This document shows positions 2 through 43,167 of a DNA stretch of 64,000 bases, one piece after another (the stretch's first letter is position 1; every line of letters starts with the position of its first letter). The translations under genes and the position numbers were made by a program. The notes under the pieces were generated by a model. It did not search any database. It saw nothing but the letters and a program-made list of their open reading frames with translations, and was not told where the DNA came from. The DNA is from Schmidtea nova. Its lineage: Eukaryota. The stretch is taken from assembly GCA_044892505.1 (NCBI GenBank), contig CM097883.1, forward strand, positions 314,588,001-314,652,000, written 5' to 3'.

Positions 2-112
2 CCAGGGTGAGCAACTAGGTTCGATGACCTCTGCATCTAACATCTTTTGTACCTCTTCTTCTGCTACTGCTTTTTGAGCTTCTGCCAGTTTATATGGTCT
101 TAATGCGATTGG
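2..112 (-). other. N-terminus of Ty3/gypsy reverse transcriptase
   Basis: ...LLMEYKDIFA...HTIPLTDETPIALRPYKLAEAQKAVAEEEVQKMLDAEVIEPSCSPW matches the canonical gypsy RT start (P...PY...L..G.I.PS.SPW). Confidence 0.9.
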
Positions 113-3100
113 CGTTTCGTCCGTCAACGGTATCGTGTGCAATGTTACATCACATGTTCCTAAATCCAAATCTGATGCTGCGAATATATCTTTATATTCC
201 ATCAACAGTTTCTGTAACTGTTCTTTTTGTCGTTCGTCTAACAACACACTGTCGATTTTCCATGGTAATTCGTCTTTGCTTTTCTCGTTCTTGTCTGGTA
301 TTTCGATTTCGGACATGGGTGTCAATTTACCCAATCTCTCATTCTCATATATTATCTTGTCCTCTTCGTCGAAGTTCACCAGATTGATCGGTATTTCTCC
401 TTCTTGGTTTATCGTGACCAATTCTCTTGCCATTGGTAATTCTTTCTTCACTTCGAACTTCTTACTTGGTTCGAATACCATATCTCCTTTTATTGTCGAA
501 TCGATCTTGACGTAGCACATCATTTCGTGTCTCGCTGGCACTACTATTTGTTCCGCACTTGCCACTTTAACTTTCATTCTGCAGATTTTTCCTGTTCTGT
601 CTTTTAGCTTCATTGCTCCTAGATCAATTACGATTTCCTTGAACAGGTCTGGCATCAGGTCAGTTCCAATAATACATGGTACACTCAGCGATGGTATTAC
701 AGCGATGTACGTGTTGATCTCTGCACCTCGATGCTTAATTTTTACAAACCATCTTCCGGCTACTTCTACTGTCTCCTGACTGCACGCGATTACATGTACA
801 TTCGTTTTCTCAATTTCTCCTTGGTTTTTCTCGGGTATATAGTTAATGTCGATTGCCGAAATATTCGCGCCTGTATCGATCATAGCTTCAATTTCTCTGC
901 CATTTATTTCTACGGTTGTTGTTAAGATCGGTCCCATATTTGTGGACATAACCGCTATCGTGTGCGTGTCTTCCAACGAGTTTACGCTTCCGCCTCGTTT
1001 TACTTTGCATCCTTCGGGAATTATCGGGTATATACTTGTCATCGGCATCATCTGCCTCATATTCGGCTTCGCTTTATATATCGGTTCGTTATACATTGAT
1101 TGGGGTGGAGCACTGTATCTCCAATTCTCAACCGCACTCTTTTCGGTATATTGTGGAATCTGGTTTATATTCGCTTGTCCTCCTCGATCGTCATCATCAT
1201 CTTCATCATTGCTTGAATCATCTTGCGTTCGATATCCTCTCACTCTTTCCCATAATCCTTTCCTTTCCTTCTTCAGTTGTCGCCTTGCTTGTTCGTCTTG
1301 TATTATCTTTTTGAATTTCCTTCCAACATCTTCATTTGTTCCTTTCATTTTCGCAAGTATCTTCAACAACCTCTTTATTCGATGTATGTCTTTTGAGTGT
1401 CCGTGTAACACCATCGTTTTCGCAAGGAATGGTAAAAACCCTACTACCATTTTCCAATTCACTTTCTTTTCTCTCTTGTAGATGTCGAAACACGCTAACA
1501 TTTGAGTTATTATCACTCTGACGATTTGTATTATCAGTATAACCCCCAGTATTCCAGCCATCATTTGTCCAAATATCAGGAATCTTCCCCACATTGCCTT
1601 CATCATATTTTCTGTGGCTTTCTTGAAATGTGCCGGTGACAACAACAGTTCGTAATTCGGTCCTTCTCGATAATTCGTTCCTCCCGTTATTGTTACGATA
1701 TTTGACAGTAATGCTTCTCTTCTTGCCGGGAATAATATATTCTGCCTTGCCGCTTCTAAATCTTTTGGACTATAGATTCCGTTGTTTGAGACATCTACGT
1801 CACTGAACTGTCTATCCTTTGACAACTGCATTAGCTCAAATTCTCTTGGTGCTAATACTTCAGTTCTTCCTGGGAACATAACCCATTTGCCATCTGGCTT
1901 CTGATAAAGCGGTCCGTACGCATTACTACAGTTGAATGGATTTGGTTCAAAACTTGGTGGATTGATGATTCTCGTCACCGGTTGAACGTATCGTACTTTT
2001 CCTTTATAATCGATTTCTAATTCATTTGTACATTGTCCAGGTTTCAACTGCGTTGTTGCTGCTAGCGATGCGTGTGTTTTTTCGCAAATGTATACGTACA
2101 TTGCTTCTCCGACCACTCTTCCGAAATGTCCTTCTCTCAGTGGTAATAACGGCATCGCGCTATCTGGATTCGTAATCGCTACGGCCAACTTTGTCTTCAA
2201 TATTTCTCGATTCAGTATACAATCGTTGTTTATCAGATCGTAGTACACTTTTTGTAATGAGGCTTGTCCTCTATGGAATAAGAAATCCATTTTATTATTC
2301 ACATATAAGTGTAGCTTGATATCCATTGTGTCGATCTTGGGTTTCGCATTCGGCACTTCTTGTTTCGACACGTATATTCCTGGATAGTTTGTTTCGTATA
2401 CTGTTGTACTGCACTTAAGGGTTGCTTTCCCTTTTATGAATCTCATTCCCACATCCTGATTTGTGGTTATCAACACTGTTGGTGTGGTTCTCATCTCTAT
2501 CCGTTTCTCTCTATGATCTGGTTTCAATTGTCTTTTGTTCTCTAAAGCCTCCTTGAGATGTTTTGCTCTAGCTTTGTCATCATCGTCTTCTTCTTGGAAG
2601 GTTTTTCCTTGAATTTCGTCGAACTTTGCTCCTTGTAGCAGTTGTAATTGACATTCGTTCACTTTTGGTTTATACACCAAAGTTGACATTCCCGTTTGAC
2701 ACATGCTTCTGTCAATTTTGCACATGGATAACGTTTTCATTTCTCCTGTTGTTGGTTCGAAGAATGCTTCGTAGCTTTTCAGTTCGACTATATACGTATC
2801 CATTACCACTAAGTTGGTTGCGGGTACTCCGAATATCGGATAGGTTTCTCCTTGACAATACCCTTCTCCTCCCGTAATTCGTCCTGCTACATAATACGTC
2901 TGCTGTAACATCATTCCTGGTTTTCCTTTTATCTTGATTTTATCTCTCGTTGTTACTTCTCCATGTTTAAATAATGCTTCGCAGTCTTCCCCTTGCAACA
3001 CGATTGGTTCTCTTTCGGTTCCTGGCATGACAATTGCTGAATAATGTCCTCTCCCACAATAGAATGCGAATCTCGTCTTCTGTACCTTGCATTCATTCAC

Positions 3101-4351
3101 CATTGTCTTTATTAGTTCTGCCTCTTGATACACGTGGTACCATTGTTCCTTTTTGATCTCTTTCAATTCTACTGGAGTTGCATCTTTGCATTGCTCCGTA
3201 CCTCTCAATGAGTACTTTTCTCCCAATTTCATTTGATCACAATCAAATACTTCAAATGTTGTTACACCTTCCGTGCTTAACAACCATACTAACATCATCA
3301 TGATTATCGAGTTTAAATTCAACGTCGATCTTCCGTTTCCTTGCATCGTTTGTCTATTCTCCATTTCTCTCAATACTCCTTCAAGTTTCTTTCTCATCAC
3401 GTTTGAACCCTCTTTTGTCTGGTTCTCTTTTATGAACTTTTCCCATCCTCCTTTCCTGAGGATATATGGTTCAATTTCTTTCTCGATAATCATCGCCGTA
3501 TTTTTAATATGTCTTCCCATCGGACTTGACTTCGGACTTCCTCGGCTTAGCGTTAACAAATTGTATATCGTATACGAGATTGCTACCATATATTTGCTGT
3601 CCGTTTCTGCTCCGTTAAGTAGCCTTTTTATTAACATCGTGGTTCCTTGCCAATCTAGATGATTCGATTTTGTTTTAGCTTTTATCAATTCTGGCATAAT
3701 CGGTGCTATTGCATTGTGTAGCATCCTTGCCTTTGTCCTAGGTTCGTTTATCCGCCACAAATTCTTTAATTCTGGGTCAATTATCGCTAACACATCCATT
3801 ATCGTTTTGGTGAGCCATTCCTCTCCTTGGCAGACTTGATTCTCCTCTTTGCCTCTGATTTCTGCGATTTTATCTAATTTCTTCAAGCAAATCTCCCATT
3901 GCTCTTGTCTCCTTTCTTCCCTTGATTTTGGGATTGTTGTTGCTGGATCTGTCTTTGGTCTTCCTCTTGGTCGTTTTTCCATTCCAGTTCCGGTTTCTAC
4001 AAATCTCGATGCTCTTCCGGTTTCTTCTGTAACGTCTCTTCCTTCGTTCGCTCGTTGTTCTAACCATCTTTCCATTTCTTGAGTAAACTGTGGTTGTTCT
4101 TGTTCGTCCTCCGAATCGTTTACCATTTCTATGACTACCTCCTGTTCCACTCCTTGATCGTCGATTTCTGCTGGTGACGTTATTGGCATCTCTATTATTC
4201 TGTCAAAAATATTCGCCGTTGGTTTTTGAGTTAACTTCGTTAGTTCTTCTATCGCCTCATCACTATCTGTTAGTATCTCATCGACGTCATACGCTTCTGG
4301 CGGTGTTCTCTCTCTCGTTTTTATTGGTGTTGTCCTTGCTTGTTCCTGGGG
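2..4351 (-). CDS. pol: Polyprotein part 2: acidic linker, Bcl-2-like domain, gB-like Env, protease, spacer, RT start (open to window edge)
   Basis: Manual translation gives a stop-free frame from 4351 (after TGA 4352-4354) to position 2; first ATG at 4189. It is absent from the ORF track because there is no stop in the window. Confidence 0.9.
653..934 (-). other. Retropepsin-type aspartic protease domain
   Basis: VEINGREIEAMIDTGANISAI (DTG at 869-877) ... CIIGTDLM. Confidence 0.93.
1409..3307 (-). other. env: Class III fusion glycoprotein (chuvirus-like / herpes gB-like Env) domain
   Basis: Hydrophobic signal, then FEVFDC, YCGRGHYSAIV, YVNNKMDFL, YYDLINNDCILNREIL, GEAMYVYIC, CTNELEI, PVTRII, NGIYSPKDLEAARQNILFP, and TM WGRFLIFGQMMAGILGVILIIQIVRVII. 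These blocks match recalled chuvirus-type G motifs in the same order. Confidence 0.85.
3422..3820 (-). other. Bcl-2-like helical domain
   Basis: BH2-like EPYILRKGGWEKF (GGW 3443-3451) and a degenerate BH1-like PELI...LDWQGTTMLI about 65 aa upstream, followed by a hydrophobic anchor. Confidence 0.55.
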
Positions 4352-4442
4352 TCATTGTTGACTTCATCGGACTTGGTGTACTCATGCTTCCTTTCGCTTT
4401 CTTTTCCTCTTTAAACTTCAGTGGTTGACCCACTATTTGTGC

Positions 4443-4643
4443 CACTGTTAGCGTATTCATTAGATCCAATTGCACTGGTGTCAGTCAGATTTCAAAATTG
4501 TTATCCAACGATCGTCCTTGATGTTGCAGGTGGAATGGTAGTTCGTACATCAGTTTCTCTTTAACACTTTTCACTTTCTCTGTTAGCATCACCCAAAACT
4601 CTTCTTTTCTTTGATTCGGATACATTATCCTCAAATGTATTTT
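4443..4643 (-). other. Ubiquitin-like domain 2 (spans the TGA at 4485-4487)
   Basis: KIHLRIMYPNQRKEEFWVMLTEKVKSVKEKL...FHLQHQGRSLDNNFEI*LTPVQLDLMNTLTV follows the beta-grasp pattern. Confidence 0.5.
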
Positions 4644-7600
4644 CTGTGGCGTTTCTTCCGCAGACTCTTTGTTTCTCCACTTTTTTATTACATCGTCTAG
4701 TTGCTCCGGACACCACTCATTTACTCTCTTGTATTCTGCTATCGCTTTAGCTACTTTTCTCAAGTTCGTTATGTCTTCCCCATTTGTGATTATGAATTGT
4801 GCTAAGCCTTTTATTGTTTGTCTTTTTCCCCGAGTATTTCCTCTCAATAGCTCGATCAATTCACTCGTTTTCTGTTTCTCCAATTCTGCCCATATTGCTG
4901 CAGTTTCTGGTCCGTCTAAGTCCGTTGGTAATAACCTCCTTGTTACCATACATATCCGTTTCGTATTCCGTTCATATCTGTCTTCTCCTTCCGGATCTTC
5001 TTCATACACGCCTCTTTTCACTTTCCAACATTTCTCTTTGTTATCCCATTGTTTCTCTACTGGCGTCAATCGTCGTCTGTTAAGATCCAATTCTCCCAAT
5101 ATTGTCTCCCATTCTGGCTTCATCTGCCAGTTCCGATAAATTTCTACTATCTGCCTCAGCTTACGCATAACGTCCTCTCGTCGTTTCTTTTTCCTTTCCT
5201 CATCTCTTGGTGTTGCTCTTTGCACATCATCCATTCTGATGACGTGTATTGTCTGATAATTATCCCATATGCCGATTTTATACGCTCGTCTTTCATCGCG
5301 TTCATTCAGTAGATGTTCTTTGTATTTTATCGCTATGTCATCCTCAAATTCGTCTTCCCGTTCTCGTTGTAGTATCGTCTCATTGATGACCTCTACTATT
5401 TCCCCCACTTTACTATCTGGTATTACCTCAATTTGTTTTGTCTCTTCGTTTGGTAATCTCACGGTAATCTTCAGATCTGATACTTCTCCTCTTTTAAACA
5501 TTTCTTTTCCCATCTTTGCGATTAGCTTGTCCGTTTTGAAATTTGAATGTCTCGTTTGACTTGTATCTCGTATGTTCTCGATACATTGCTTCAAATTCTC
5601 ATACTCGCTTTTCGTCAGTTCCTTTCGATGTTTCTTGATTTGTTGGATGATCTGTTCTATCATCGTATTCAAATTCTCCGCCAAGATTCTTTCTTTTGCC
5701 TCTACCAACTGAGGTTTTATTCTCATCTCATAACACGTATTCGCTTCTTTGACGATTCCTTGTAAGTTCTCTTCCTTTTTGGTGTTGCATATAGATAGCG
5801 TTGTTATTTCTCCTGGCCAGATGCCTGTGTCTATCATATGCGTTCCTTTTCTCACCAATCCGTTTTCCGAATATATGAATTTGTCTTTGTACGAGCTTCC
5901 CAATCTGTCCTCAACCCATCGGTAAATTCCGTCTGTCATTGGGTTCCTTATCCAGATTCTCGGTGAACACTCGTTTATCCATATCTGTATTATGTATTCG
6001 TTCAGTGGTTCTTTCAATAGCCTCTCTATGAATTCTTGTATTACCCTCACTTCTCTTTCTTGTAACCACTCTTTATACTTCATCTGCCATACTGCTCGTA
6101 TAAACTTTCGATATCGTTTCGTGTCGATAAACTCCTCGTTATGGATCACTTCCAACGCGTTATCCATCAGCTTCTGAATTTCGTCTTCCGTTACTGACAA
6201 TGTTTCTATTGTCTCGACTACTTCCATCTTTTTATCCTCGTTTTCCGGTTCCTTTAGCATGTCTCCTGCCAGACTGCTAACTTCGCTGTCGTCTTCTTCA
6301 TCTGACAACTCTTGTCTTGGGTGTCTCAGCATCCCAATATGCGCGGTTGGTCTCGCTTCTTTTTTGCTAACTTCCTGTGTTAGTTCATTCTCGTTTCCCG
6401 TTATTTCAGCTTTTCCCATTCTTTTTCCTAATTCATCTATTTCTTCCAACCGTCTTCGTCTTATTTTCCCTTTAAATATTCGACTGATCCGGGTTTGATG
6501 TTTCACTGGTGGTGGGATTTTCTCCGGTTCCACCTCTCTGATGATCATCACGTTTATTTTTGTCTCCGTTACTCCCATGTCTTCCCATGTGTCAGTCATC
6601 TTCAATTTTACTTCTGGCAAATCCTCTGTTTGTAGGAATGCTTCTCTGGGCAGTTTCGTTACTCCCGGAATCATCTCATTTACTTTATTGAACAATCTTC
6701 CCACTTCTTCTTTTACATCGTATTTGAATCGCCACACGTGATCATTCGGCATGATCACCAACATTCCTCTTTGTTTGATTCTTACTTCCTCTTCTTGATT
6801 CGTTTCTTTTTCTGTTTCTTTTTCTGTTTTTGTTTCTTTTCTCACTTCTTCATCTTTTTTATTCTGTTCTGCAGTTTCTACTTCCTGATTCGCTTCTTCT
6901 TGTTTCTGCTCTTCGTTTCTTTTCTCTTTAACTTCGAGTTCATTTGACTCATCTTGCTGCTTCTCTTCCATCATTGCTCGCATCATGTTGATCCTTGGAT
7001 TTCCCTTTTTTAACTGTTGTAATCGTTGTTGCCTGACTTGTTCTTCTTCTCGTCGTACTCTAGCCCATTCTTGATTATGTTTCTGTTGGCTTTCTCTATT
7101 CTCTCTTTCGGCCTCAGCTTCTATTAACTGGATCATGTTTATCTTTGGTTGAGCAGCTTGCTGGCTTCCCTTTGCCATGCTTTCGATTATCTCGTGTAAT
7201 CTGGATACCTCCTGTCTCAACTTAGCTTCTTTCATACTAGCTTCGTTTGCACTGCTGTTTGGGTTGTTCCGTTGTTGACCTTGATTCCCATAGCTTGGTC
7301 GATTCCCGTAATTCGGTCTATTTCCACTGTTTGCCCAACTTCTCTGTTGATTACAGTCTTTTGACATGTGTCCGGTTTTTCCACATGTGTAACACGTTTT
7401 CCCATAACATCGATTCTCTGAGTGACCTTTTTGTCCACACAGTTTGCAGGCTACATTCTGAAAACAATCTTGTTGCCAATGTCCGTTTTTTCCACACGTC
7501 TGACATTGCCTATTCTGCCTGTCATTGTAACTGTTTCCTCCATTCGTGTTTACTGTGATATATCCATTATTTTTCCTCGCTGGCGGTTCTTTGAACAATC

Positions 7601-8222
7601 TCTGCGAATGGGGGATACTTTGATTCATGTTTCTTTTTCCTTGTTCTTCATCTTCTGTCGTTTTTCCCATTACCGCCGTAATTCTCATGTCATTCATTGC
7701 CATATGCAATTCGAATAGGTTGGCTGCTTCCAACGCTTCATCTACTGTTTTACATCCTTTGCATCCCACTTGTGCTCTGATGTCAGGTCTCCTGAGACCT
7801 CGTACGAATAACGCTGTCATCAATTCTTCGTCTACTGGGCTTCCTCTATTGAATGCCAGTTTCGCCAACTTTCTTAATTCGCTTGCGTACACCGCATTTG
7901 ACTCGTTTCTCCTTTGTTTTCTTGCTGAGAACTCATCGAACGCTTCGTTCAACACTTTATTTATCCCAAACGTCTGTTGGAAGAACTCCTTGATTGCTTC
8001 CCACGTTCTGGGTGGATTACTTCCCGATCTCTTCTCAATATACAGATCCAATGCGCTATCTTTCAAGTATAGCGGGATTCGATTCGCTAACGTTTCTGCA
8101 CTCCATCCGCATATATCCACGAATATGCCAAATTCTTTCAGGAACGTGTCCAATCTACTGGCGTCTCCATTAAATGGTTCGCCCTTGAATTTTTCTCTTA
8201 GATCCTCTCTGTGATCACTCAT
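4485..8222 (-). CDS. gag: Polyprotein part 1: Gag capsid, 3 CCHC zinc knuckles, coiled coil and accessory domains
   Basis: 1245 aa ORF with retrotransposon gag motifs (FNGD...FLKEF, W...K..F...F, FVRGL) and three CX2CX4HX4C at 7353-7505. The frame stays open upstream to 8705 except for one TGA at 8586-8588. Confidence 0.95.
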   Translation of the reverse strand: MSDHREDLREKFKGEPFNGDASRLDTFLKEFGIFVDICGWSAETLANRIPLYLKDSALDLYIEKRSGSNPPRTWEAIKEFFQQTFGINKVLNEAFDEFSARKQRRNESNAVYASELRKLAKLAFNRGSPVDEELMTALFVRGLRRPDIRAQVGCKGCKTVDEALEAANLFELHMAMNDMRITAVMGKTTEDEEQGKRNMNQSIPHSQRLFKEPPARKNNGYITVNTNGGNSYNDRQNRQCQTCGKNGHWQQDCFQNVACKLCGQKGHSENRCYGKTCYTCGKTGHMSKDCNQQRSWANSGNRPNYGNRPSYGNQGQQRNNPNSSANEASMKEAKLRQEVSRLHEIIESMAKGSQQAAQPKINMIQLIEAEAERENRESQQKHNQEWARVRREEEQVRQQRLQQLKKGNPRINMMRAMMEEKQQDESNELEVKEKRNEEQKQEEANQEVETAEQNKKDEEVRKETKTEKETEKETNQEEEVRIKQRGMLVIMPNDHVWRFKYDVKEEVGRLFNKVNEMIPGVTKLPREAFLQTEDLPEVKLKMTDTWEDMGVTETKINVMIIREVEPEKIPPPVKHQTRISRIFKGKIRRRRLEEIDELGKRMGKAEITGNENELTQEVSKKEARPTAHIGMLRHPRQELSDEEDDSEVSSLAGDMLKEPENEDKKMEVVETIETLSVTEDEIQKLMDNALEVIHNEEFIDTKRYRKFIRAVWQMKYKEWLQEREVRVIQEFIERLLKEPLNEYIIQIWINECSPRIWIRNPMTDGIYRWVEDRLGSSYKDKFIYSENGLVRKGTHMIDTGIWPGEITTLSICNTKKEENLQGIVKEANTCYEMRIKPQLVEAKERILAENLNTMIEQIIQQIKKHRKELTKSEYENLKQCIENIRDTSQTRHSNFKTDKLIAKMGKEMFKRGEVSDLKITVRLPNEETKQIEVIPDSKVGEIVEVINETILQREREDEFEDDIAIKYKEHLLNERDERRAYKIGIWDNYQTIHVIRMDDVQRATPRDEERKKKRREDVMRKLRQIVEIYRNWQMKPEWETILGELDLNRRRLTPVEKQWDNKEKCWKVKRGVYEEDPEGEDRYERNTKRICMVTRRLLPTDLDGPETAAIWAELEKQKTSELIELLRGNTRGKRQTIKGLAQFIITNGEDITNLRKVAKAIAEYKRVNEWCPEQLDDVIKKWRNKESAEETPQKIHLRIMYPNQRKEEFWVMLTEKVKSVKEKLMYELPFHLQHQGRSLDNNFEI
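5232..5471 (-). other. Ubiquitin-like domain 1
   Basis: KITVRLPNEETKQIEVIPDSKVGEIVEVI...IAIKYKEHLLNERDERRAYKIGIWDNYQTIHV follows the ubiquitin-fold pattern. Confidence 0.55.
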
Positions 8223-8705
8223 CCCGATTCCACTATCTTGGAATACTGTACTAGTTTTCTTTACTTCTAGTTCACCACTTGTTTCTGGATTCGACTCTTC
8301 TTCTTCACTACTCTCTGTTTCGTTATCTCTTGATTCGCTTCTTGTTCTGTTTTCCCTGACTAGTTCACTGTCTATCGTCTCTACTTCGTTTTGTACTTCT
8401 AGATCTTCTGGGGTTTCTTCTTGATTCTCTTTATTACTCGAATTATCGCTGATCTCTACTTGTTTGTTCTTTTGTTGCTTAGGCTTGTTACCTGTTCTTG
8501 TCCTTTTCGCTGCTTTTCTTTCTGCTTCCGTTAAGATTGGTATTATACCTGATCTTGTTTCTCGTCCCTCAATTTTGTCTATTCCTCAACTGCTTATATT
8601 CTCAACTGCTTTTCTACTCCGCTTTTGCTTTGCTTCTTCTTTGATTTGTTTCTTTTGATTGCTCTGACTGCTAGATTGCTTTGAATTGCTTGATTGATTT
8701 GTTTC

Positions 8706-8766: not shown

Positions 8767-9097
8767 GGGTGTAGTCATAATTCATGAAGATCCCCATTTT
8801 TCCCATTTCCCTTGATTTTAAGTCTATTTAAATTATCTATGCAGTCGCATCAATTATCTATTCTTTATCAAATACACCAATTACTTTTCCCCAGTTTCCC
8901 AATTACTTTGTCGCTCAGCGCTCTTATTATCCCCTTTACTTTTCTCAGGCTTCTCTGGCTCTGAGTTCAAATCCCCCTTATCTGTCTACTACTCTATTTC
9001 CCAACTATTCGCTTTATCTCCTATTCGCACTACGTTTACTACTTCATTTCAATTCTCATCTCTACTCACCTTTACTTCAACTGACATCTCTCGTTGG

Positions 9098-9476
9098 CCT
9101 GCTGGGTTTTCCAGTCAGCGCTTTTAATCTCACCTTTTATCTCGAACTCTGTTTCTCTCAACTTCACTCATTATCCCATTAGCCTGCTGGGTTTTCCAGT
9201 CAGCGCTTTTAATCTCACCTTTTACTTCTGCTTCATTATTCTCGACCTCAATTGTCGTTTCATTAGCCTGCTGGGTTTTCCAGTCAGCGCTCTTATTATC
9301 CACCCTTTATCTCTTCACTGTCGACTTTTACCTGTTCTTTGCTCCGATGATCATCACTTTTGACCTGCTGGGTCTTCCAGTCAGCGTCCTCAATTTCACT
9401 ACTTTATTATTACTCACTTTTATTCTCTCGATCTTTCCTGATCGTTATCATTGACCTGCTGGGTTTTCCAGTCAGC
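9098..9476. repeat. Five 22 bp hairpin-forming repeats (CCTGCTGGGTTTTCCAGTCAGC) with 62-75 bp spacers
   Basis: Copies start at 9098, 9183, 9267, 9364 and 9455. Confidence 0.9.
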
Positions 9477-9803
9477 ACCCTTCACTTACTCACTTTACTT
9501 TGCTACTCCTCCTTGTATGCATACTTTAACATCATTAGGCCACATAATCAGCTTTACTCGCATTTATCAATACCCCGGTGCGCACCTTCAACTCTCTCAT
9601 TATTAATTCGGTTTCTTTCAACCCTTATTCCTCATTATTCGCTATTCATTTTCACTATTCATCATTTATCCTCATTATCATTTATTCATCTCCATTATCG
9701 CTTGTTGATCTTCACTATCCGGATAGTTTTATACGTAATTTTGTCCTCATCTGCCTCACTTCGTCGTCTTTCTCGTGGGCTTTTACTCAATATTTTATTT
9801 CGA

Positions 9804-10445
9804 ACGAGAACTATGCTCACTGCTGAGAACTATGCTCACTAACGAGAACTATGCTCACTGACGAGAACTATGCTCAATGACGAGAACTATGCTTACTGAC
9901 GAGAACTATGCTCACTAACGAGAACTATGCTCACTGACGAGAACTATGCTCAATGACGAGAACTATGCTCAATGACGAGAACTATGCTCACTAACGAGAA
10001 CTATGCTCACTGACGAGAACTATGCTCAATGACGAGAACTATGCTCACTAACGAGAACTATGCTCACTGACGAGAACTATGCTCACTGGCAAAACATGGT
10101 TGTTATGAGGGTTTTGCTTACTGATGGAAACTCTTTGCTCCGGGGATTATGTTCCCCGATGAGAACTATGCTCACTGATGGTGACTACAGGAATTATGCT
10201 TCCTGATGAGAACTACGCTCACTACGATGACTATGTTTATTGATGAGAACTACGCTCACTGATGAGGACTATGTTCGCTGTTAGAACTTACGTTTATTGA
10301 TGAGAACTCTGCTCACTACAAGATTTATATTTACGGACGAGAACTATGCTCACTATGGTGTTGTGTTTTATGACGAGACCTACGCTCACTAGGATGTTAT
10401 GTTTTATGACGAGACCTATGCTCACTATGAGACCTATGCTCACGA
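9804..10445. repeat. 19 bp tandem array (ACGAGAACTATGCTCACTG), degenerating rightwards
   Basis: About 15 near-perfect units to ~10090, then degenerate copies. Confidence 0.95.
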
Positions 10446-11142: not shown

Positions 11143-11601
11143 TTACAAGTACACTGTTATTTTCTCGGATACAGGTAGGTTGCACATAGGACATCGTTCA
11201 TTTATTTTACAGTCATTACAGAATCGAAAATGCCCACACGGCAACAACATTATCTGTATTTTGTTTATTTCACAGATGTAACACGTCAGATATTGTCTCG
11301 TATGTTCTGTTGTTATTCTTATCCACTCATCGTGTTTTGTTGCAATCTGTTGTTCTAGCCTGTGGCACTCGATATTCATCTCAGGGTTGTTTAATCGCTC
11401 TCTATACCACTGATATCGTGTTGCTGTATCCACTGTTATCTTATTCTCGCTTATGCTCATCATCATTTCGGCTCTTTCTGTGTTGTTTGTCGGTTCGTGG
11501 TATCCTCCTACCTCGAGTCGTTTTAACTTTCTCGTTATGGTCTCCACTGTTTCGTTGTTTGTCTCGAAAAACGTTTGCATTTCTTTTATTTTGTTCTCCA
11601 T
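11143..11601 (-). CDS. Coiled-coil + C-terminal RING-HC protein (IAP-type RING), putative E3 ligase
   Basis: CYICEINKIQIMLLPCGHFRFCNDCKINERCPMCNLPVSEKITVYL: C3HC4 with the LLPCGH signature at the extreme C-terminus. Confidence 0.85.
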   Translation of the reverse strand: MENKIKEMQTFFETNNETVETITRKLKRLEVGGYHEPTNNTERAEMMMSISENKITVDTATRYQWYRERLNNPEMNIECHRLEQQIATKHDEWIRITTEHTRQYLTCYICEINKIQIMLLPCGHFRFCNDCKINERCPMCNLPVSEKITVYL

Positions 11602-12135
11602 CCCCTGAATGAATTACCATTTATTTCTGTCGATTTTTATTTATTATTCCTTATTCTTATTCTATGGTAGTCCTACTGTTCGCTTTCTGTTGTTCTGTTT
11701 TGCGTCACTGCGTGTATATCCCCCCGTGTTCTTGAATGTCGCCCCGACATGATCATTGTTAGTTGCTCACACTCATACCATTTTCATACGCGCTTTTCAG
11801 CATACTTTTACCTTACGTCATGCATACTTTTCATCACTTTTCATACTGTTATTCCACATACTATTCCTCATACTTCATTCATCCCCATACTTACATTCCA
11901 TTGTCATTCATTCTTTCATTCTCATGTATACTTTTATCATGCTCATCACTCTCATTATTTTACACCCATACTTTATTTATTATTTTTCAACCCGATTCAT
12001 TCTTGCTTCAGGACCCTTAAACCCTCTGTTATCGTTTACTTTACTTTTCGTCGCTAATTTCGATTCCATCCCGGTTCATGCGCTCTAAACTTTCCGCAGA
12101 TATCGAATTCACTTTTTCCCACAAAGATCGATTTA

Positions 12136-12153
12136 ATCCCGGCTGAGCCCCCA
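12136..12153 (-). promoter_or_regulatory. Primer binding site complementary to tRNA-Pro
   Basis: TGGGGGCTCAGCCGGGAT is 16/18 identical to the MLV PBS-Pro TGGGGGCTCGTCCGGGAT and lies directly after the LTR end AATT. Confidence 0.88.
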
Positions 12154-12313
12154 AATTTATGCTGGTGTGTTGGTTGGATTGACAACTGAGATCCTTATGA
12201 TTTTATACGTTAGGGTGATCTCGCCAACATAAAAACATTCCCCCCGCTGACACCCATGATGTATCCCTAACTACTCATCATGTTGGTGCTGTGTCAACGT
12301 TGTGAAATGACAA

Positions 12314-12382
12314 GGCAGGTGAGCAACCTTTCGGCTACTATTCCCTTGTTTATTCACGGGTCCACCACTACCGATAGAAGGT
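12314..12382 (-). ncRNA. Conserved structured RNA motif with GNRA hairpin (copy 1)
   Basis: CCTTCTATCGGTAG...GGACCCGT...TAG-TAGCC GAAA GGTTG-CTCACCTGCC; covarying relatives at 42278, 46364 and 52281. Confidence 0.55.
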
Positions 12383-12545
12383 GTCTGTGGCTTTCTTTCG
12401 GTCCCACTTATGCTCTTTTCTATTGTCCTAGGGTGATTCAATTTTATTACATCTGCGGCTTTAAATGAATCCGGGTTTTAGTTATATTCAATTCTCAGTC
12501 ATTCCACAAACAAACAAGACAAGTCAAATCATTCGTTTTATACAT

Positions 12546-13166
12546 TTATTTATAGTTCAACAATACAGAGGGTCGTATTACATTTAGTAGTTCTTGCTCG
12601 GATAGACCACTGAGCAAGTCTACTTCGATTCCAAGGCGATCTGCATACGCGCGTCTCTCCCTACGCTTTTTCGCTCCCAAGCGCTTCCGTCTCTTTGTTC
12701 GTTTCGAGCCTTCCAGAATGATTGGGGATGTTGGGGTAGTTGTGATTGGGATGGTTTCTATCTCCGTTTGGGTACTTGTTGTCATCGATATTGTGTCCAC
12801 CCACCTATTAAAGGTGCTAGTCCTGATCACTGGGCGTAATTGCTCGGTGATAAACTCCTTGGTTGATGCCCTCAAGTAATTCGACAGCTCCATCTTTAGG
12901 GCTGCTACCTCCCTAGCTTGCTCGTCGATTGTTCGCTCCGCTCTGTATCGGGCTTGCAGGATAGTTTTAACCCTCTCTGGGTTGAACCACGTGGCTTTAA
13001 TTCGCTGGTGCTCTTCGTTTAGTTGACGCAAGCGGTTTTCTAGGACTCGCGATCGTGCTTTATGCTCTTTGGCCTCTTGTTTGTAGTCCCTAGTCGGATG
13101 TTCACTCATCTCTGTAAAATGTACAATTAATCGGGTTATGTATGGTTTGTCTGTTCTCTCAGTCAC
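12546..13166 (-). CDS. LTR-encoded accessory protein B (coiled coil, Arg-rich motif, Leu-rich C-terminus)
   Basis: Intact ORF with homologs at 42580-43167 and 45815-46153; AATAAA overlaps the stop. Confidence 0.75.
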   Translation of the reverse strand: MTERTDKPYITRLIVHFTEMSEHPTRDYKQEAKEHKARSRVLENRLRQLNEEHQRIKATWFNPERVKTILQARYRAERTIDEQAREVAALKMELSNYLRASTKEFITEQLRPVIRTSTFNRWVDTISMTTSTQTEIETIPITTTPTSPIILEGSKRTKRRKRLGAKKRRERRAYADRLGIEVDLLSGLSEQELLNVIRPSVLLNYK

Positions 13167-13300
13167 TATCTTTATTATTAAACCGGTGTTTCACTCTCAG
13201 ATCACTTCATGCATTCAAAGACATAACAAAACCCAAAAATTAATACATTTATTTTTAATACACCTCTCATCTTTCTTCGAATGATCGATTTCCTTGCGAT

Positions 13301-13936
13301 TTAGATGAAGGTTCGTAATTCCTGGTCGGCCGTGTTCTCGTCACGACGGATTCCACTTTCGTAGTAGAACTCCGGGGCGGGGCTCCAACTTAACTTGTCC
13401 CGAAAGATGAATACCTCCCAGAGACGAAGGTCTTTGGGCTCGGGTTGTTGGTCCAACGAAACGCTTCCCGGCGCGTTTGAGTAGGCGAAGACTTCCCCAG
13501 TGTCGCCACACCGAGGCCTGTCTAGCAGCAGGTAACCGAGTTGATGTAGCTCTTTTCCGGACATCATTCCAGTACTTAGTAGCCAGCGGGGCTGCTGTGC
13601 TTCATCCACGAATTGGTAGAACCATCGGGGATTCTCCGGTTTGCTATGATCCGAGGAGGGTACCCAATCAGTATCTCCTTCCCACCGCAACTGTAGTCCA
13701 AACGCGCAAGCTGGGGTGCTAGCGGCTGAGCTCATGTGAGCCCTCATCCATCGTCGTAGGTGGCGACGTGATACTTCTGCGACCTTTCGAGGTGCTTCGT
13801 TCTCTCCTCTGATGTTTATGATCGTATTGGGTCGGATGACGGAGCGGGTGCGCCGTTTCTTACGAAGGATGGTGTCCTCTATCTTTATCGGGTGCGCGGT
13901 CATCGGCTTCTCTTGGAAATTCTCTAGTTTCACCAT
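13301..13936 (-). CDS. LTR-encoded accessory protein A (unknown family)
   Basis: Intact 211 aa ORF with homologs at 34627-35229 and 43252-43761. A TATAAATA lies ~60 nt upstream and an AATAAA downstream. Confidence 0.75.
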   Translation of the reverse strand: MVKLENFQEKPMTAHPIKIEDTILRKKRRTRSVIRPNTIINIRGENEAPRKVAEVSRRHLRRWMRAHMSSAASTPACAFGLQLRWEGDTDWVPSSDHSKPENPRWFYQFVDEAQQPRWLLSTGMMSGKELHQLGYLLLDRPRCGDTGEVFAYSNAPGSVSLDQQPEPKDLRLWEVFIFRDKLSWSPAPEFYYESGIRRDENTADQELRTFI

Positions 13937-14871
13937 AGTATTTCTAAAGAAGATGGTTGTTTGTTAACTATGGATTCTATGGTATAACGGGCCTATTTAT
14001 ATTAGTCAACCCACCCGTTATACTTAATTTTCAACACTCATGTTCAACCACTCAGCTTTAACAGTTTTTATTTATCGATAATACTATTTAATCACATTCA
14101 ATCTCATCAGTCGTTTTCAATTACTTCCTCATCTAACCAGCAATGATCATACCATGTCGGGTAATTCTCGTAAGTACCTGTGATCCGTACACGCTGGGGT
14201 TCATCATTTTATCAGTTCTCAATGCCTGTGATTTATTTATCATCTCTCTTGGCGATTAAACGCGTCTGACAGAGGTTATCGATTACCCTTAACCCTTGAT
14301 ACTAGGTTCACTATTCCCGAACTCGTAAGCGCTAATGTTGACATATACCTACCCTCGTCGTCACCTAATTCATCGGCACTAATATTATTCACTACACGTC
14401 TATCCCTCGTCTAGACTTCACCGCGATATATGTCCTTCCTATAAAACGGGTTTCACTTTGCGCTCGTTTACGACTACTAGTTTATACTCGATACCCTATC
14501 ATCGTGATGTATAACGTTTACATTAGATCATCTCTACCTTGATTTCGTTCATGATCATTAGGTCTTACTCGATACCCTATGTGCATTTAACCCCTTCCGC
14601 TTTCCAAATATTTAATACACCTATGGTCCCGCCGCATCAGCACCTCACAACCGAAAGATTGTGTTGCGCTGAGAGGCCCCAAGAATCCGTCAGGCTGTTA
14701 GGCCTCCGGAAAACCTTATGGATTTTAATATGGTTATAAACAATTATGAGGGTTTAAATACATCAATAACATAACTCCAAATTACCTTTTATTTTCGCTT
14801 CGAAATCGGTATTACAACGTTTTCAGTAAGTCACAAGAGCTTACACTTGGTAAAAAATGACATATTCAAAT

Positions 14872-14922
14872 ACTGATTTTACTTCAGTATTTATACTGAA
14901 CCGGTGTTGTTGGTTAGCCAAT
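14872..14922 (-). promoter_or_regulatory. CCAAT + TATA (TATAAATA 14895-14888) + TCAGT initiator-like promoter
   Basis: The same CAGTATAAATAC and CCAAT spacing occur at 44698-44732. Related TATA boxes are at 33068-33075 (+) and 53161-53168 (-). Confidence 0.6.
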
Positions 14923-15684
14923 CAGCATCGAGTATGTGTGTTTGATCATTATTCTGTGTTGCCGGCTTTTTGCTGCCTAACTTAACTCGCCGATTTGTTT
15001 GGTTAATCATGCGGTAAGTTTATTTTTTGTACGATTTAATTTTTATTTGATTTTGCTTTAGGTCTTCGGTGACATCCGCCCACGCGCTGTCATATTCCAA
15101 TTTTTTCTGCTTCGCATGAGTGAGTTTTGAAGATTTTTGTTGTTTTGATTAATATGTTATTTCTTTTAGATGTTGCCGCCTATTTTGTTACGCTTTGGTG
15201 TTGGTAATTTATTTTGTTGTTATTCTGTATTTAATTTATTTTATTGATTGTACATTATTTTCAGATGCTGCTCGATTTGGCTGGCCCAACAGAAGCAAAG
15301 ATTGCTGAAAGAAAATTCAAGCCAATTTTATTTATACTGAAGCTTTATCAAAGTTTATATAGTTTTCTAACTTACAATCTCCCTCGTCGACGGCTGCTAA
15401 ATTGTAAAGAAGCTAAAAAAGAAAAACTTTTCAAGTAACCTTTCGTGGTTTTTTATTATTTTGTTATTAATAAATATTAGTAATTTAAAATAGTGCTGTT
15501 TATTTTATTGTATCTTATATACTTTTATATTTGATTGTTATTATATCATATCAGTAACCGCACTACACAGCACACACCCCGAGTGTCGACACATTGCTAA
15601 CGTCTGACTCTCTCGGGATCTACAACTCTTCTACACATCCACCCAATCAACAAATTAAAAACTCAAATTAGAACAGCTCAAACA

Positions 15685-15687
<3 letters not shown>

Positions 15688-15726
<39 letters not shown>
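15688..15726. repeat. (TA)n microsatellite at the element 1 boundary
   Basis: Direct reading. Confidence 0.95.
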
Positions 15727-34400: not shown

Positions 34401-34626
34401 CTCCTAATAGCTGTTTTCAAATTAAACTTTTCAGACCTAATTGAACCACATTAAATATTTGTTTAGGGAAAATCCAATCGGAAAGTTTCGTCTTAAACAG
34501 AAGTCGACTGCTAAAAGATTCATTTTTCTGAAAATTCGATCGTAACTTAAACCCGAAACAATATCAAAGAATCCTAGAAAGATAAACGCACAACAGAACC
34601 CAAACAAGATATCGAGACAGCCTATA

Positions 34627-35229
34627 GTGTATTTTCGCAACGGGCTGGTAGATAAACCAGGAGTTTGGCCCCTCAAGGAGGCCCCTTCAACTGTTTTGAA
34701 TAATATATACAAGCAGATGCGAAAATGGAGGCGCGTATTCAAAACTCGAGCTCCATTCGGCATCTGGGAGAAGGAGAGTGAAACCCTATGGTACGAAGGA
34801 GGCTCCCTATGGCCATAGGATCATCACAATGCCTATACAAGAAAATGCTTTGTCGTTCTACACGACGGGGAACACGTTCTTAAATGAACAATATCCTTCT
34901 ACCGGATTCCCGCTCGCGAGCTACACAAACTAGGATATGTCTTACTAGATCGTCCTCGGCATCTGGGCACCGGCGAGTATCAGGAGTTTTCAAATCTCTC
35001 TTTTAAATTTCTCGGAGAATGGCGGCCAATCTCGGATTAAACCAAGCGGATTTGCACCAAGGGAACATTCTTATATAATTCTCGATTGTGCTGGGTACCC
35101 AATCCAGAGATTTATCACCCCAACAGTGTAGCCAAGGACGAGGCCGAGCAGGTCCAGGATTGGACCTGCGACGGAGCTTGCAGCGACTGGGAGTTAGGTG
35201 ACGAAGACAAACTGCTGTTAAAACTGTAA
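34627..35229 (+). pseudogene. Protein A homolog with three in-frame stops
   Basis: One frame reads QMRKWRR...GIW...LWYEGGSLWP*...RELHKLGYVLLDRPRHLGTGE...LCWVPNPEIY. Confidence 0.8.
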
Positions 35230-38200
35230 TTAAAATGGTTTACGTTTAGTGAATAGAAAAATATAAATCATAATTTGAAATTGTCGTTTTACTTTCATGT
35301 CTGTGGTATGCTGAATAATTTGTGCAGTGATTGAAAGGGAGATGAGATTGGAAACCCAAAGTAATGCGAGAATAATGAAAGGAAAGGTAGCAAAGGATAT
35401 GAAGTGATCAAGACTAATTGATAGTACGAGTATGATTGTGTGGGGATAGAATACGTGAAGGTTTGACTGAATGAATGCGCGTGATATGAGAATTATCATT
35501 TCTACACATTTCTACACCATTCGCTATATTGTCCACATAGCATAGATTCATCTGATAATGATTGAAGTGAAGATTCTGCTGCCTCTTCTGACACCATTTT
35601 AATAGTATTGTCCATAGTAATTTATTGTAATTGTAGAATTATTATTCTATTAAGGTGTTGGGCCAAAACTGCAAATTGTTTAAATAAAGCGGAAACACAA
35701 CAAGTAGAGAGCGCGCAAGATCCTAATTTAACCAAAACATCAAGTAAAACCGAGGTTGTTAAGTAAAAACACGCCTAACTATTAAAGTGGACCAAAGTGC
35801 ATTAACAAGTAGAGAGCGCGCAAGACTCTAGTCTAAAGTCCTTTAATCAAAACATCAAGGAAAAATCAAAATGGTTAAAAGAAGCACGTCTAGAAAGTTA
35901 GAATAGACAAAAAACACATCGAATATGCACGTAGAGAACGCATTTACGTTATAAAACCTTATTTGTGGAAATTTAGCATGCTTTTAGAAAGAAGGTTACG
36001 ATCTTATCTTAAAAATTCGTAAAAAGGTAAAAGAAAAACAATTTTGATCAAATTACAACAAATTAAATCAAATTAGAATAAACTTTAATTCAAAAGTAAA
36101 ATTTTGGATTAAAAAGAAATTATTTAAAGTTTTATGAAAATTTGATGTAAAATTATTAATTTAGTTTTGCGGAAAATTGTTGAAATTAACTTCAAGAAAA
36201 TTAAAATCTCCTTCCAGAACAATTTGTTTTAATACCTCAATGGAATTAAAAATGCAGAAAGTTTTATATATAAATACCGCCATCAAAATCTAGAAATTTA
36301 ATGCTATTTTGCAAAAGATTTGCGGGGGAATTTTGTTGCTAAAAATTTTGAGGTTTTTAGCAGGGAAATTTTTACAAAGAATCTCTTATTACTAATATAC
36401 CAGTGTGACTCTACCAGAATATTACGAAAGAAGATTATTTGTGATCGGGAATCGAATTATTCGTAAGAAACTTGATTTTGTTTCCTAATTATAAAGGCCC
36501 ACGAAATCATGCCCTCGCTACCCGGCCTAGGTATTTTTCCTTATTTTAACCTTTTCTACATGTGTACTATATGATATTTTATGTATTCTTTTATGAAAAT
36601 TATAATATTTTATATTCAAACTTTTATTAAATTTCGTCACATTTTCTCAGTTACTAATATCATTTTATTGTTATTTATCATATATATATATATATTTATA
36701 TTTTTTTATGTATTTCATTAAAACCACTTCCATACCCTCTGACATCTGTTCAGGCTTTGAGCCGTACTGGTAAAAGTAGTCTGAGCGGATCGCTGGTTCG
36801 ATTCGTAATCGATCAGTCCATTTTTCCGACTCAAGGTGACACGCCCAAACATCCATGATCACTTCATCCCAACTGGGGAACAGTGGCTTGGCCAAGGGCA
36901 AGGTTTTCATATTAATGATCATCAATTTATATTAATGTATTTTTATTTGAATTATATTTTACAACATATAATAAATTAAGATTTTATATCTTGATGCAAA
37001 TCAACGTTAATTCGTCCAGTGTTATCTTTATTTCCATAAAACTTATTAGTATAAAACATACAGCTCGTTATTCGCCTTCGCTTTCACAAAACCCTTTTTA
37101 TCTCCTCAGAACTTATGATCCAAATGGAAGTTGAAATTGTGAAAATTGTTAAAAACAAATGCTCAAAGATCAATATAGTTATTTAGATCATGACAGAAGA
37201 AGTGAATAATTGTCGATTTATAAAAAGTTAAACCTCATAGAATTATATAAAATTACAAAGATTTGCTCGAAAACAACAGCTCAATGATTATTAGAAATGC
37301 TTCGAACATGTGAATAAAGATTGATTCCATCTATTTGAACTTCATTAAACCGAAGACTTTTGTAAAAATTTATAATTTATTTTATTTTTTTTTAATATAT
37401 AAAATTTTTTAGGTTGAAATTTTATTTAGATTGCGAAATTTTTGGATAAAATTTTATTATTGTATGGATTTTATGGAATTTCAAATTGGATCATAAAAAT
37501 AAAAATTTACTTTTGTAGATACTATATTACAAAAAATTTATAATGAAAAAATTATAAATCAAAATTTTTCCTAGAAATTTTTAAATCAAAAATTATATTG
37601 GAACACATGAAAATTATAAATCAAAAATATTATTATTATATTAAAAATTTTATCATTTTATAAAATTCCAAATTTGAAATTTCGTAGAAAATTTACAATT
37701 GGTATATATATATCCTTAAAATATAAAAATTAGAATTCAAAAATTTATATTATAAAAATTAGAAATTTTATTATTATATAACTTTCATAAAATTATAAAT
37801 TTAAAATTTGTAGAAAGTATTATAAAATTATCATAATTATCTTTTTTCACCTTTGAAAAAAATTTTGAAAAAAATTTTGATCTATAGTCATTATGAGAAT
37901 TATTGATAATAATATTATAAAATTATTATTATTTTAATTCTAAAAATATTTTATATATAAATATATATTATTTTGTATAATACCCCCACAATATCACAAA
38001 AACCATAATACATCCATATTTGCAAATCACAACATCCATTTCATTCATTAGTAACATCCATATATAACACCACATAAAAATCCATTCATTCATCAACACA
38101 CATACTATATAGTTTCACTCAATAGTACCTATCTGCATCAAAACTCATAAAATACACACCAAAAATTCTTTTAATAACATGTGTCTGCATCATACATCCA

Positions 38201-41200: not shown

Positions 41201-41527
41201 CATCTTCAGAATTTATCTGTCACTAGCAGTAACAAATTGTTCTGCTGAAAGATCGTTTTCTTGTTTAAAAAGAATAAAAACTTATCTTCGTTCACAAATG
41301 AAAGAAACCAAATTAAATGCCGTTTCAATTATGCACATCGAACACGACGTTTTAGAGAAAATTGAGTTTGAAGACATAATTAATAAATTTGTAAATCAAA
41401 AAATTAGAAAGAAAATATAAATAAATTTAACTCTTTAAATAATACAATGTGCTTTTTATTTCAATTCAAATTACACTAAAATTCATATAAAGTGCCTAGG
41501 GGCGGCAGATTCTTAAATCCGCCGCTG
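38238..41527 (+). mobile_element. Full-length hAT element (Tip100/ZMYM1-like transposase group)
   Basis: Imperfect TIRs CAGCCCTGGATTTA / CAGCGGCGGATTTA and a perfect 8 bp TSD CCCATCAC (38230-38237, 41528-41535). Confidence 0.95.
38876..41420 (+). pseudogene. hAT transposase split by two 1 nt frameshifts
   Basis: TTF-type zinc finger, GLPL(RGH), DSTPD, GQSYDNANNM, CACHSINL, TRWS, SAERSFS and dimerization domain; shifts near 39730 and 41015. Confidence 0.93.
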
Positions 41528-42277
41528 CCCATCACTAAATTACTTATTTCGCCCAACAATCCATTCAACATACAATCACATACAATCACCACAATAAAAA
41601 TTCATCACAAATCTATGATAACACAAACACACACAAACTTGCAATCACTCCATTTCACTCATTACTACACTCACCATAAATCCATGCAAAATCAGCTCAT
41701 CCAACAATCAACATCCATAGCAAACGCCCTACACAACAAATTCATTCCACTATAATTTCACATAACTTCGCTTGTCTCACTCAACAACACTATCTTCATA
41801 CTCAATCCCTCCACTTACTCACATCATCCATGCAGCATGGTGCATCTAGGAAATGTAATTCAAAAAGTTATTTAATTATAAACTCAAGCAAGCCAATTAT
41901 TTACCAATAACATTCTATACATCAGCCTAATCAGCCTATAGACAAATTATTACGGTTTATAAAACTCCCGTAAAACCCATTCGTCAACATCTCATACCCA
42001 TAACTAACCTTATGGTGAACCCTGTCCATGAAAAGTTCCTTTCGTAAATCCTCTTAATTCCGAAATGTAAATAAATAAATATTATAAATTTTATATATAA
42101 ATTTTATTCTTTATTTATGCTGCGTTCATGGAGGGGTTAGATAAAAATATTCTAACGATGACTAGGGATCCCTCATCCATGATCATGCATAAATATGCGT
42201 AACTTTACACTCGAGCGCCCTTGATTATTTCCCTTGATAACCAAGTTGGTGATGCGCAGGGTGGTTAAACAATGATG

Positions 42278-42347
42278 GGCAGGTGAGCACTATTACTAGG
42301 ACTACTCACCATTTATGTTTACGGGTTCATTGCTGCCGTTGGAAGGA
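42278..42347 (-). ncRNA. GNRA-hairpin structured motif (copy 2)
   Basis: GGCAG...GAACCCGT...GGTGAG TAG TCCTA GTAA TAGTG CTCACCTGCC. Confidence 0.55.
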
Positions 42348-42579
42348 CTTACGCTTTATTTGTGAATGATTTTATTCGTTCCATCTCGTAACATGTACTA
42401 TTCACTTTTATTTGAATATTTGAGGTTCAGTTATTTATTTGCGTCTATTCACTCTCTCGAGGATGAATCTCATGAAGTTTGGAAAATTTATGTCTCTTAT
42501 AGTTATTACATTATCTTTACTTTATTTAATCAACAAATTCATGGAATATCAAAAATGTCAACACGGTATGAAAACTAGT

Positions 42580-43167
42580 TTATTTTTCTAATACATGACT
42601 AAAAATTCCTTCTGGAGGGAAAACCTCATTCAGCAACTCTTCTTCAGATAGCTTGTTCAATGCTTCGATCTGATTCTGCAATTTCAGCGCGAAGAACTTT
42701 CTCTGTCTCCGTCGCTTTTGACCAATTCGTTTACGCCTTGGGTGGATTGATTACCGCCGCCTCGGTTAGGCCTTCGACGTAAGTGCCAATGGAAATTACC
42801 GCCTTCCTCTCGGCGATCCATCCTTGGTAGGCCTGATCAGTTCTTTGAGCTCTCGTTCGATGTACGAAGCCGTCACTGAGTGGAGGCGTTTGCGTAACTC
42901 GATCTTGGTGGCCTCCCACTCCATTCGATAGTCATCTGCCGTCCGCTGCGCTCGCTCGGTTTTCCCGATTTGCTCCTTCATTCGCGCCGGAGCAAACCAA
43001 CTCTTGCGCAAGTAAGCTACTTGTGCCTCGGCTTTAGCTAGTTTTTCATTGATAAGGCCCAACTCTTTATCCTGGGCTCTCCGGATCCTCCACATTTTTT
43101 CTATTTCTTTCTGTGCTGACTCTGCATTCATTTCTACAAATTGAATTAAGCGTAAACCTTCATCCAA
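42580..43167 (-). pseudogene. Protein B homolog with two frameshifts
   Basis: WFAPARMK...RAQRTAD...IRP, then AYQGWI, then RKRIGQKRRRQR...LSEEELLNEVFP. Confidence 0.8.

Follow-up and report, generated by a model that had tools for sequence, protein, structure and literature searches.

Can a retrotransposon's long terminal repeat (LTR) hold protein-coding genes of its own and, if so, where in the repeat do they lie and what might they do? This question is raised by a locus of Schmidtea nova (GenBank assembly GCA_044892505.1, contig CM097883.1, positions 314,588,001 to 314,652,000 of the forward strand), a stretch of 64,000 nt that we call the window and number from its first letter. An original prediction from the letters alone had placed at 12136-15726 a 3.5-kb gene-bearing LTR with errantivirus-like AGTT...AATT ends, a proline-type primer-binding site (PBS) and a TA target. 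We find a 29,126-bp Burro-type Ty3/gypsy element whose two LTRs both carry a pair of conserved accessory genes, open reading frames (ORFs) A and B, which are probably expressed from the LTR's own promoter by splicing. The ends of the element are conventional; an LTR with two conserved genes is not. To our knowledge, protein genes lying entirely within LTRs are rare, and the familiar cases are in the unique 3′ region (U3).

Paired LTRs define the element and contain both genes

A genome search with window 12100-15720 retrieved the 3′ partner of the LTR 26 kb away (G000:C2:314574166-314577297), which differs from the 5′ LTR by 4 mismatches and likewise includes both ORFs, so that the gene-bearing LTR is real. 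Identity between the two repeats breaks off exactly at window positions 12160 and 15291, which delimits a 5′ LTR of 3,132 bp rather than 3.5 kb (12160-15291, minus strand), with TG...CA termini and a 4-bp target-site duplication at 15292-15295 whose matching copy lies past the 3′ LTR. The AGTT previously taken as a terminus, together with its (TA)n tract, sits about 400 bp outside the LTR, in a flank (15292-15726) composed of a degenerate tandem repeat and then AGTT and (TA)n; the AATT belongs to a spacer before the PBS. Because the first 121 nt of this flank (15292-15412) match the flank past the 3′ LTR at 95%, we conclude that the element landed in a degenerate tandem repeat.

We then compared 60 LTRs of the same family (family 1), comprising 25 with a PBS after them, 12 with a 3′ internal end before them and 23 solo LTRs; one truncated locus (L149) was dropped from 61, and L011, L021 and most 3′ partners lie outside the set. 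TGTTG opens 59 of the 60 and CAGCA closes 58, while duplications of at least 4 bp, varied in sequence, flank 20 of the 23 solo copies. A few copies are inserted in (TA)n or (TAA)n, and the target preference amounts to an AT-rich bias at most. Although AATT does adjoin the PBS and AGTT does adjoin (TA)n within the window, the idea of an errantivirus-type LTR of 3.5 kb, bounded by AGTT...AATT and set in a TA repeat, is refuted by the paired LTR, the conserved TG...CA termini, the 4-bp duplications and the shared flank, and we regard it as practically impossible. The relatives in the window that had been noted to stop after the same landmarks without a PBS are indeed such, being one solo LTR and one 3′ LTR. 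In six pairs, the two LTRs are 99.5-99.97% identical (the pair L011/L027, at 82%, was excluded from this range, the L011 locus being cut short), and the present element inserted recently.

ORF A and ORF B bear the marks of purifying selection

ORF A encodes 211 aa (window 13301-13936, minus strand) and ORF B 187 aa (12546-13109, minus strand). Intact frames numbered 29 (ORF A) and 28 (ORF B) in a set of 30 LTRs, and 58 and 51 in the larger set of 60; solo LTRs carry the whole cassette, with an intact ORF A in 23 of 23 and an intact ORF B in 18 of 23 copies. Insertions and deletions in the 30 LTRs numbered none in ORF A and one in ORF B, against many in the flanking LTR parts. The mean dN/dS over 23 copies was 0.18 for ORF A and 0.08 for ORF B, compared with 1.2-2.0 for shifted and antisense control frames, and changes in the ORFs were in excess at third positions. 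Among variants shared between copies in the 60 LTRs, 117 were nonsynonymous and 134 synonymous in ORF A, and 94 and 214 in ORF B, at site ratios of 3.4 and 3.2; stops occurred as private changes only and were absent from the shared variants. These patterns indicate that both ORFs are under purifying selection, and the silent bias of the shared variants would fit selection during replication of the element and decay after insertion. The youth of the copies and the lack of a homologue in public protein sets might suit ORFs that are open by chance or through recent duplication and have no function, but the frame-specific dN/dS, the third-position excess, the scarcity of indels and the homologues carried by other LTR families, 15-30% identical and arranged alike, make this very unlikely.

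In family 2, LTRs of 3.0-3.2 kb contain both genes, ordered as in family 1; of 28 loci, 18 show both ends, and 16 of these have a 4-bp duplication. The window contains one such solo LTR of 2,965 bp with a 4-bp duplication (42118-45082, minus strand), in which the A homologue is intact and the B homologue is broken by a stop. Family-2 homologues of ORF B are 26-32% identical to it; for ORF A, direct comparison with the family-2 counterpart is weak (30.8%), and the connection through a third-family protein is firm (hhalign, 99.0% and 98.8%). On these comparisons, the A-B gene order is kept in three LTR families. Decayed pieces of the third family, with A and B homologues, occur in the window at 34546-35260 and 45743-46572 (plus strand), split by nested insertions. 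In protein searches of the genome, 150 of 3,064, 151 of 3,828 and 150 of 9,291 first-look candidates counted as matches; these figures are lower bounds rather than copy numbers, and 150 or more copies were scored for each gene.

Promoter, splice and poly(A) signals suggest alternative splicing from one leader

The putative main promoter (window 14888-14925, minus strand) consists of a TATA box at 14888-14895 and a CCAAT box at 14918-14922 and is present in 60 of 60 family-1 LTRs, the two boxes lying ~395 nt from the LTR start in family 1 and ~374 nt in family 2. The start site is predicted at window ~14858-14864, LTR position ~430, and the predicted leader exon (14784-14862, minus strand) ends in a donor GT at 14784-14785, which an AATAAA (14788-14793) immediately precedes. 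A donor-like site ~105 nt past the TATA box was found in 59 of 60 family-1 LTRs and the AATAAA overlapping it in 58 of 60; 22 of 27 family-2 loci also have a donor-like site. Each ORF is preceded by an acceptor-like trinucleotide (TAG at 13944-13946 for ORF A, CAG at 13112-13114 for ORF B) and followed by its own AATAAA (13248-13253 and, overlapping the stop of ORF B, 12545-12550). A YAG within 9 nt of the ATG occurs at 26 of 28 ORF A and 27 of 28 ORF B loci in family 1 and at 27 of 27 and 25 of 26 in family 2, compared with 24% of other ATGs in the same regions. The separate AATAAA of each ORF, already part of the original prediction, is found at or just past the stop in 59 of 60 (ORF A) and 60 of 60 (ORF B) family-1 LTRs, and for ORF A at 23 of 28 family-2 loci. 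Three of five internal accessory ORFs examined carry AG immediately ahead of the ATG; a fourth lacks it, and the fifth is cut by the locus edge.

Together, the promoter, donor, acceptors and AATAAA signals suggest one short leader exon spliced to alternative terminal exons. Transcription would start near LTR position 430, a ~75-nt exon would be joined to the acceptor closely preceding ORF A, ORF B or one of the internal accessory ORFs, each mRNA would end at its own AATAAA, and the genomic RNA would be the unspliced read-through. An exact-pattern search for spliced retro-copies, which is a weak test, gave 0 matches for the leader-to-B junction and 4 for leader-to-A, none of them LTR-like. Contigs from four sequencing runs of unrecorded kind contained nothing usable on starts, ends or splicing.

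On the opposite strand of U3, three mini-intron-like GT...AG segments (window 15014-15061, 15120-15169 and 15204-15264, plus strand) point out of the LTR and are kept in 48, 53 and 56 of the 60 family-1 LTRs, and two analogous antisense segments in family 2 (window ~44755-45065, plus strand) are kept at 15 and 23 of 27 loci. These segments suggest an outward spliced antisense RNA and could splice solo LTRs into host flanks; no substantial antisense ORF was found past the 3′ LTR. HTLV and several retrotransposons are known to have antisense promoters in their LTRs, according to the available text of PMC7264820.

The genes likely lie downstream of U3

To place the genes relative to U3, the repeat region (R) and the unique 5′ region (U5), we examined where tracts of identity between LTR copies end. 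Six of 74 distinct tract ends fall at LTR 411-443 against 1.0 expected from the density of variable sites (P ~6e-4), and for longer tracts 5 of 32 against 0.43. Three left ends lie at LTR 429, 430 and 431, and copies L014 and L115 show 19 differences up to LTR 430 and are then identical to 840. Any excess at the second TATA-like box and at both poly(A) sites was not significant. A breakpoint cluster at 411-443 is as expected from strand transfer at the cap site, and from this cluster and the position of the promoter we infer that both genes likely lie downstream of U3, in R/U5. The minus-strand strong-stop DNA would then measure ~2.7 kb, and on its way through the 5′ LTR a genomic RNA starting at 430 would have to get past the donor as well as several acceptors and two poly(A) sites. 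The leader AATAAA of family 1 would give a short R, but 4 of 27 family-2 loci contain no AATAAA from the TATA box to ORF A, an arrangement in which R would include ORF A. Recombination was evident throughout in window-by-window tree correlation and haplotype painting, which did not fix the R/U5 border.

Alternatively, the genes could lie in U3 in the style of sag of mouse mammary tumour virus (MMTV) or nef of human immunodeficiency virus (HIV), with the upstream TATA boxes driving accessory mRNAs only and the genomic RNA starting from an unrecognised promoter near the 3′ end of the LTR. This arrangement would dispense with a 2.7-kb strong-stop DNA and with read-through of two 5′ LTR poly(A) sites, both of which are awkward, and would suit the almost invariant last 230 nt of the LTR and the A-rich hexamer ~33 nt before CTCA in families 1 and 2. 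However, the hexamer is absent from family 3, the sole CCAAT and TATA combination conserved across families is the upstream one, and the breakpoints lie at 411-443 and not near the other tested sites; we consequently judge a U3 location unlikely.

Several observations weigh against an LTR promoter that serves two spliced genes in R/U5. Signal conservation in related copies is not independent evidence. A second TATA-like box ~65 nt before ORF A (window 13994-14001, minus strand), which occurs in 54 of the 60 LTRs of family 1 without being conserved in family 2, could give ORF A its own promoter. Recombination is common all along the LTR, and a further group of pairs breaks near 1250-1300; the segment past 430 is hypervariable, which can inflate the breakpoints there, and the pairs are not fully independent. 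Finally, the genes are not required in cis by every family, as a 1,703-bp 3′ LTR of a related element (window 52103-53805, minus strand), with the same TATA box and terminal motif, has no ORF of at least 50 aa on the element strand; the gene cassette is therefore optional across families.

Architecture and priming of the element

Internally, the element encodes on the minus strand a RING accessory ORF (C3HC4, 152 aa; window 11143-11601) with AG just before its ATG and AATAAA after its stop, a gag-like ORF with three CCHC knuckles (4485-8585), and a fusion glycoprotein (PF24664, E 3e-72) in the same Pfam-matched frame as the protease (RVP) and the start of the reverse transcriptase (2-4351). 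Past the window edge follow the remainder of the reverse transcriptase, RNase H, integrase, ankyrins and a TRAF-like accessory ORF. Several features of Burro are thus present, namely a total length of ~30 kb, multi-kb LTRs, the order protease, reverse transcriptase, RNase H and integrase, a CCHC gag, and ankyrin, MATH/TRAF and RING cargo; the element is of Burro type within Ty3/gypsy and not an errantivirus, a placement made by architecture. The polyprotein of the present copy, which is otherwise young, is broken at 4351-4487, between the gag and glycoprotein parts, by a stop and a frame change. A BCL2-like motif before env had no Pfam Bcl-2 match and no PDB match by phmmer, its resemblance being by eye only. 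The 3.9-kb leader between the PBS and gag contains dispersed ~60-nt repeats and a 19-nt tandem array (9070-9500 and 9790-10370).

The errantivirus-like character originally proposed was not upheld, as the LTR ends, the tRNA-Pro primer and the in-frame PF24664 glycoprotein all differ. Errantivirus LTRs have the ends AGT...ATT. In the available text of PMC3383448, Drosophila errantiviruses use a tRNA-Lys or tRNA-Ser primer and possess a baculovirus-related env; they share with the present element membership of the Ty3/gypsy superfamily, an envelope-like gene and priming at a PBS, whereas here the primer is tRNA-Pro, the termini are TG...CA and PF24664 stands in frame before the protease, rather than env forming a separate third ORF. 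The planarian giant Ty3/gypsy elements Burro/GYPSM1 are described, in the available part of PMC6431247, as having gag, a mononegavirus-like env in frame before protease and reverse transcriptase, ankyrins, MATH/TRAF and a RING-type accessory ORF. The present element is like them in its size of ~29 kb, three CCHC knuckles, in-frame glycoprotein, ankyrins, MATH/TRAF and RING (PMC6431247) and unlike them, in this copy, in the interruption of its polyprotein between the gag and glycoprotein parts. That text mentions no LTR genes, spliced leader or antisense unit, although its Figure 2A may show such ORFs (PMC6431247). In S. mediterranea, Burro RNA increases on knock-down of piwi (PMC8532177).

The PBS (window 12136-12153, minus strand), an 18-nt site attributed to tRNA-Pro from the outset, is confirmed by the host genes: it is perfectly complementary to the 3′-terminal 15 nt of the tRNA-Pro(TGG) genes in this genome followed by CCA. 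The gene-bearing LTR of the original prediction has thus withstood both checks named for it, since the 3′ LTR contains ORFs A and B and a host tRNA fits the PBS. The tRNA-end pattern had 899 matches genome-wide and its reversed control 0, and at locus L033 four of five tRNA genes are tRNA-Pro(tgg). The tRNA-Pro genes form a long tandem array with a 308-bp period (G000:C1:459609706-459656576). Between the LTR end and the PBS lies a constant 6-nt spacer (12154-12159, minus strand) that contains AATT and occurs only where a PBS follows, in 25 of 60 LTRs. No purine tract adjoins the TG of the 3′ LTR, where a short G run lies ~10 nt upstream instead. The PBS spacer and the lack of an abutting purine tract may entail unusually long cDNA terminal extensions, trimmed by integrase. 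A hairpin with a short G run lies 10-30 nt upstream of the 3′ LTR at L031:8298-8330, and a similar one at window 53806-53840. At L005 (G000:C1:497809957-497813149), an LTR preceded by a 3′ internal end and followed by a PBS is the shared LTR of a tandem element.

Candidate functions of the A and B proteins

The A and B proteins likely serve the element's own cycle, which is the least certain part of our account. Neither ORF singly, nor the alignment of B proteins, had a homologue among 5.8 billion proteins in a comparison restricted to near lengths; the ORF A alignment gave two matches among 1.84 billion representatives, both tandem-repeat artefacts. Neither ORF matched Pfam or PDB sequences, and ORF A had no usable match in the ESM Atlas. 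The ORF A model, of low confidence (pLDDT 51), combines helix with a small beta-sheet core, and its fold search reached a best Z of 3.4, which is not meaningful, without a viral match. The ORF B model (pLDDT 74, pTM 0.29) displays long helices, a disordered Thr/Ser linker and an Arg/Lys-rich helix, and its fold search returned no match. Blank homology and fold searches of this kind neither prove a novel fold nor establish the absence of relatives.

Complex retroviruses handle the escape of unspliced RNA from splice and poly(A) sites via Rev/Rex-type proteins. Because of its long helices and Arg/Lys-rich helix, ORF B is the strongest candidate for an RNA-binding regulator of the Rev/Rex kind, one that would let unspliced RNA escape these sites, a tentative and somewhat doubtful assignment. 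In its basic motif, helical in the model, 13 of 22 residues are K or R, and the motif is kept in 27 of 29 aligned B proteins; a basic motif alone is nonetheless a common feature and a weak sign of Rev-like function, and the idea, which draws on composition and architecture, counts no sequence or fold match in its favour. ORF A may regulate the promoter or counter silencing.

A candidate target of ORF B is the near-invariant terminal element formed by the last 230 nt of the LTR (window 12160-12390, minus strand), likely a cis-acting signal. Its core motif near the LTR end is common to four otherwise dissimilar families (12285-12385, 42238-42342, 52241-52345 and 46372-46475) and reads on the opposite strand as a splice-donor consensus, with an E-box inside. 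Rfam gave one sub-threshold chance match to the terminal element and no known ribozyme, and the fold z-score was only -1.5.

The main rival to the Rev-like step holds that the ORFs are translated, host-manipulating cargo comparable to the element's TRAF, RING and ankyrin modules and take no part in RNA processing; lying in the LTR would simply give them a double dose and preserve them in solo LTRs. The anatomy is the same under both explanations and function alone differs. The several signalling and ubiquitin modules borne by the element (compare the available text of PMC6431247) and the related LTR without the cassette would agree with cargo, but neither a host homologue nor a signal peptide-like feature was seen for A or B, and in B the conserved basic helix suggests a nuclear or nucleic-acid-related role. 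We therefore regard cargo as a distinct possibility, if short of probable. The most complete version of the Rev-like account, in which each LTR would be an alternatively spliced two-gene R/U5 unit with a 2.7-kb strong-stop DNA, a Rev-like B protein acting on the LTR-end element and an outward antisense leader, is unlikely to hold in full.

Other features of the window

A second, decayed Burro-like element extends from the short ORF-less 3′ LTR to ~62500 (window 52103-~62500, minus strand), with gag remnants ~2 kb from that LTR, and is possibly a deleted non-autonomous form. The segment at 38876-41530 we take to be a hAT-like DNA transposon with its transposase split across three ORFs. An ORF at 48350-48955, presumably similar to an hnRNP A/B-type protein with two RRM domains, is probably a host gene or a retro-copy.

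Discussion

The known genes with which ORF A and ORF B invite comparison are sag of MMTV, nef of HIV and simian immunodeficiency virus, and bel2 of foamy viruses, all of which are within U3 or overlap it, the copy in the 3′ LTR being the one expressed. Complex retroviruses resemble the present element in having LTR accessory genes, splicing from a 5′ leader, a possible internal promoter and a basic helical regulator. In the LTR described here, by contrast, each of the two genes is a complete unit that has an acceptor and a poly(A) signal to itself and likely sits downstream of the LTR promoter, which would make any LTR self-sufficient, be it solo or paired. Neither ORF showed sequence similarity to complex-retrovirus LTR genes or to regulators such as Rev, Rex, Rem and Rec.

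Among plant elements, Ogre, Retand and Grande have long LTRs and additional conserved ORFs of no assigned function, described in the internal region (available text of PMC7264820 and PMC6431247). They are like the present element in their multi-kb LTRs, conserved extra ORFs and antisense promoters (PMC7264820) and differ in that their extra ORFs are internal, the available text of PMC7264820 containing no wording on ORFs within the LTR. A literature search yielded no paper on ORFs inside Burro LTRs, which the primary Burro papers, their figures and supplements, or the Repbase entry may show.

Given two orphan genes that keep their order across diverged LTR families, likely lie downstream of the promoter and bring splice and poly(A) signals with them, a solo LTR would be no inert scar but an autonomous gene unit. 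The same genes raise the testable question of how a 29-kb genomic RNA evades two poly(A) sites and several acceptors of its own 5′ LTR, and, at 150 or more copies each, the genes can confound host gene annotation. If the most complete version of the account were true, solo LTRs by the hundred would function as mini-genes, controlling the whole Burro family in trans and splicing into adjacent host DNA, and regulation of the complex-retrovirus kind would have arisen independently in an invertebrate gypsy element.

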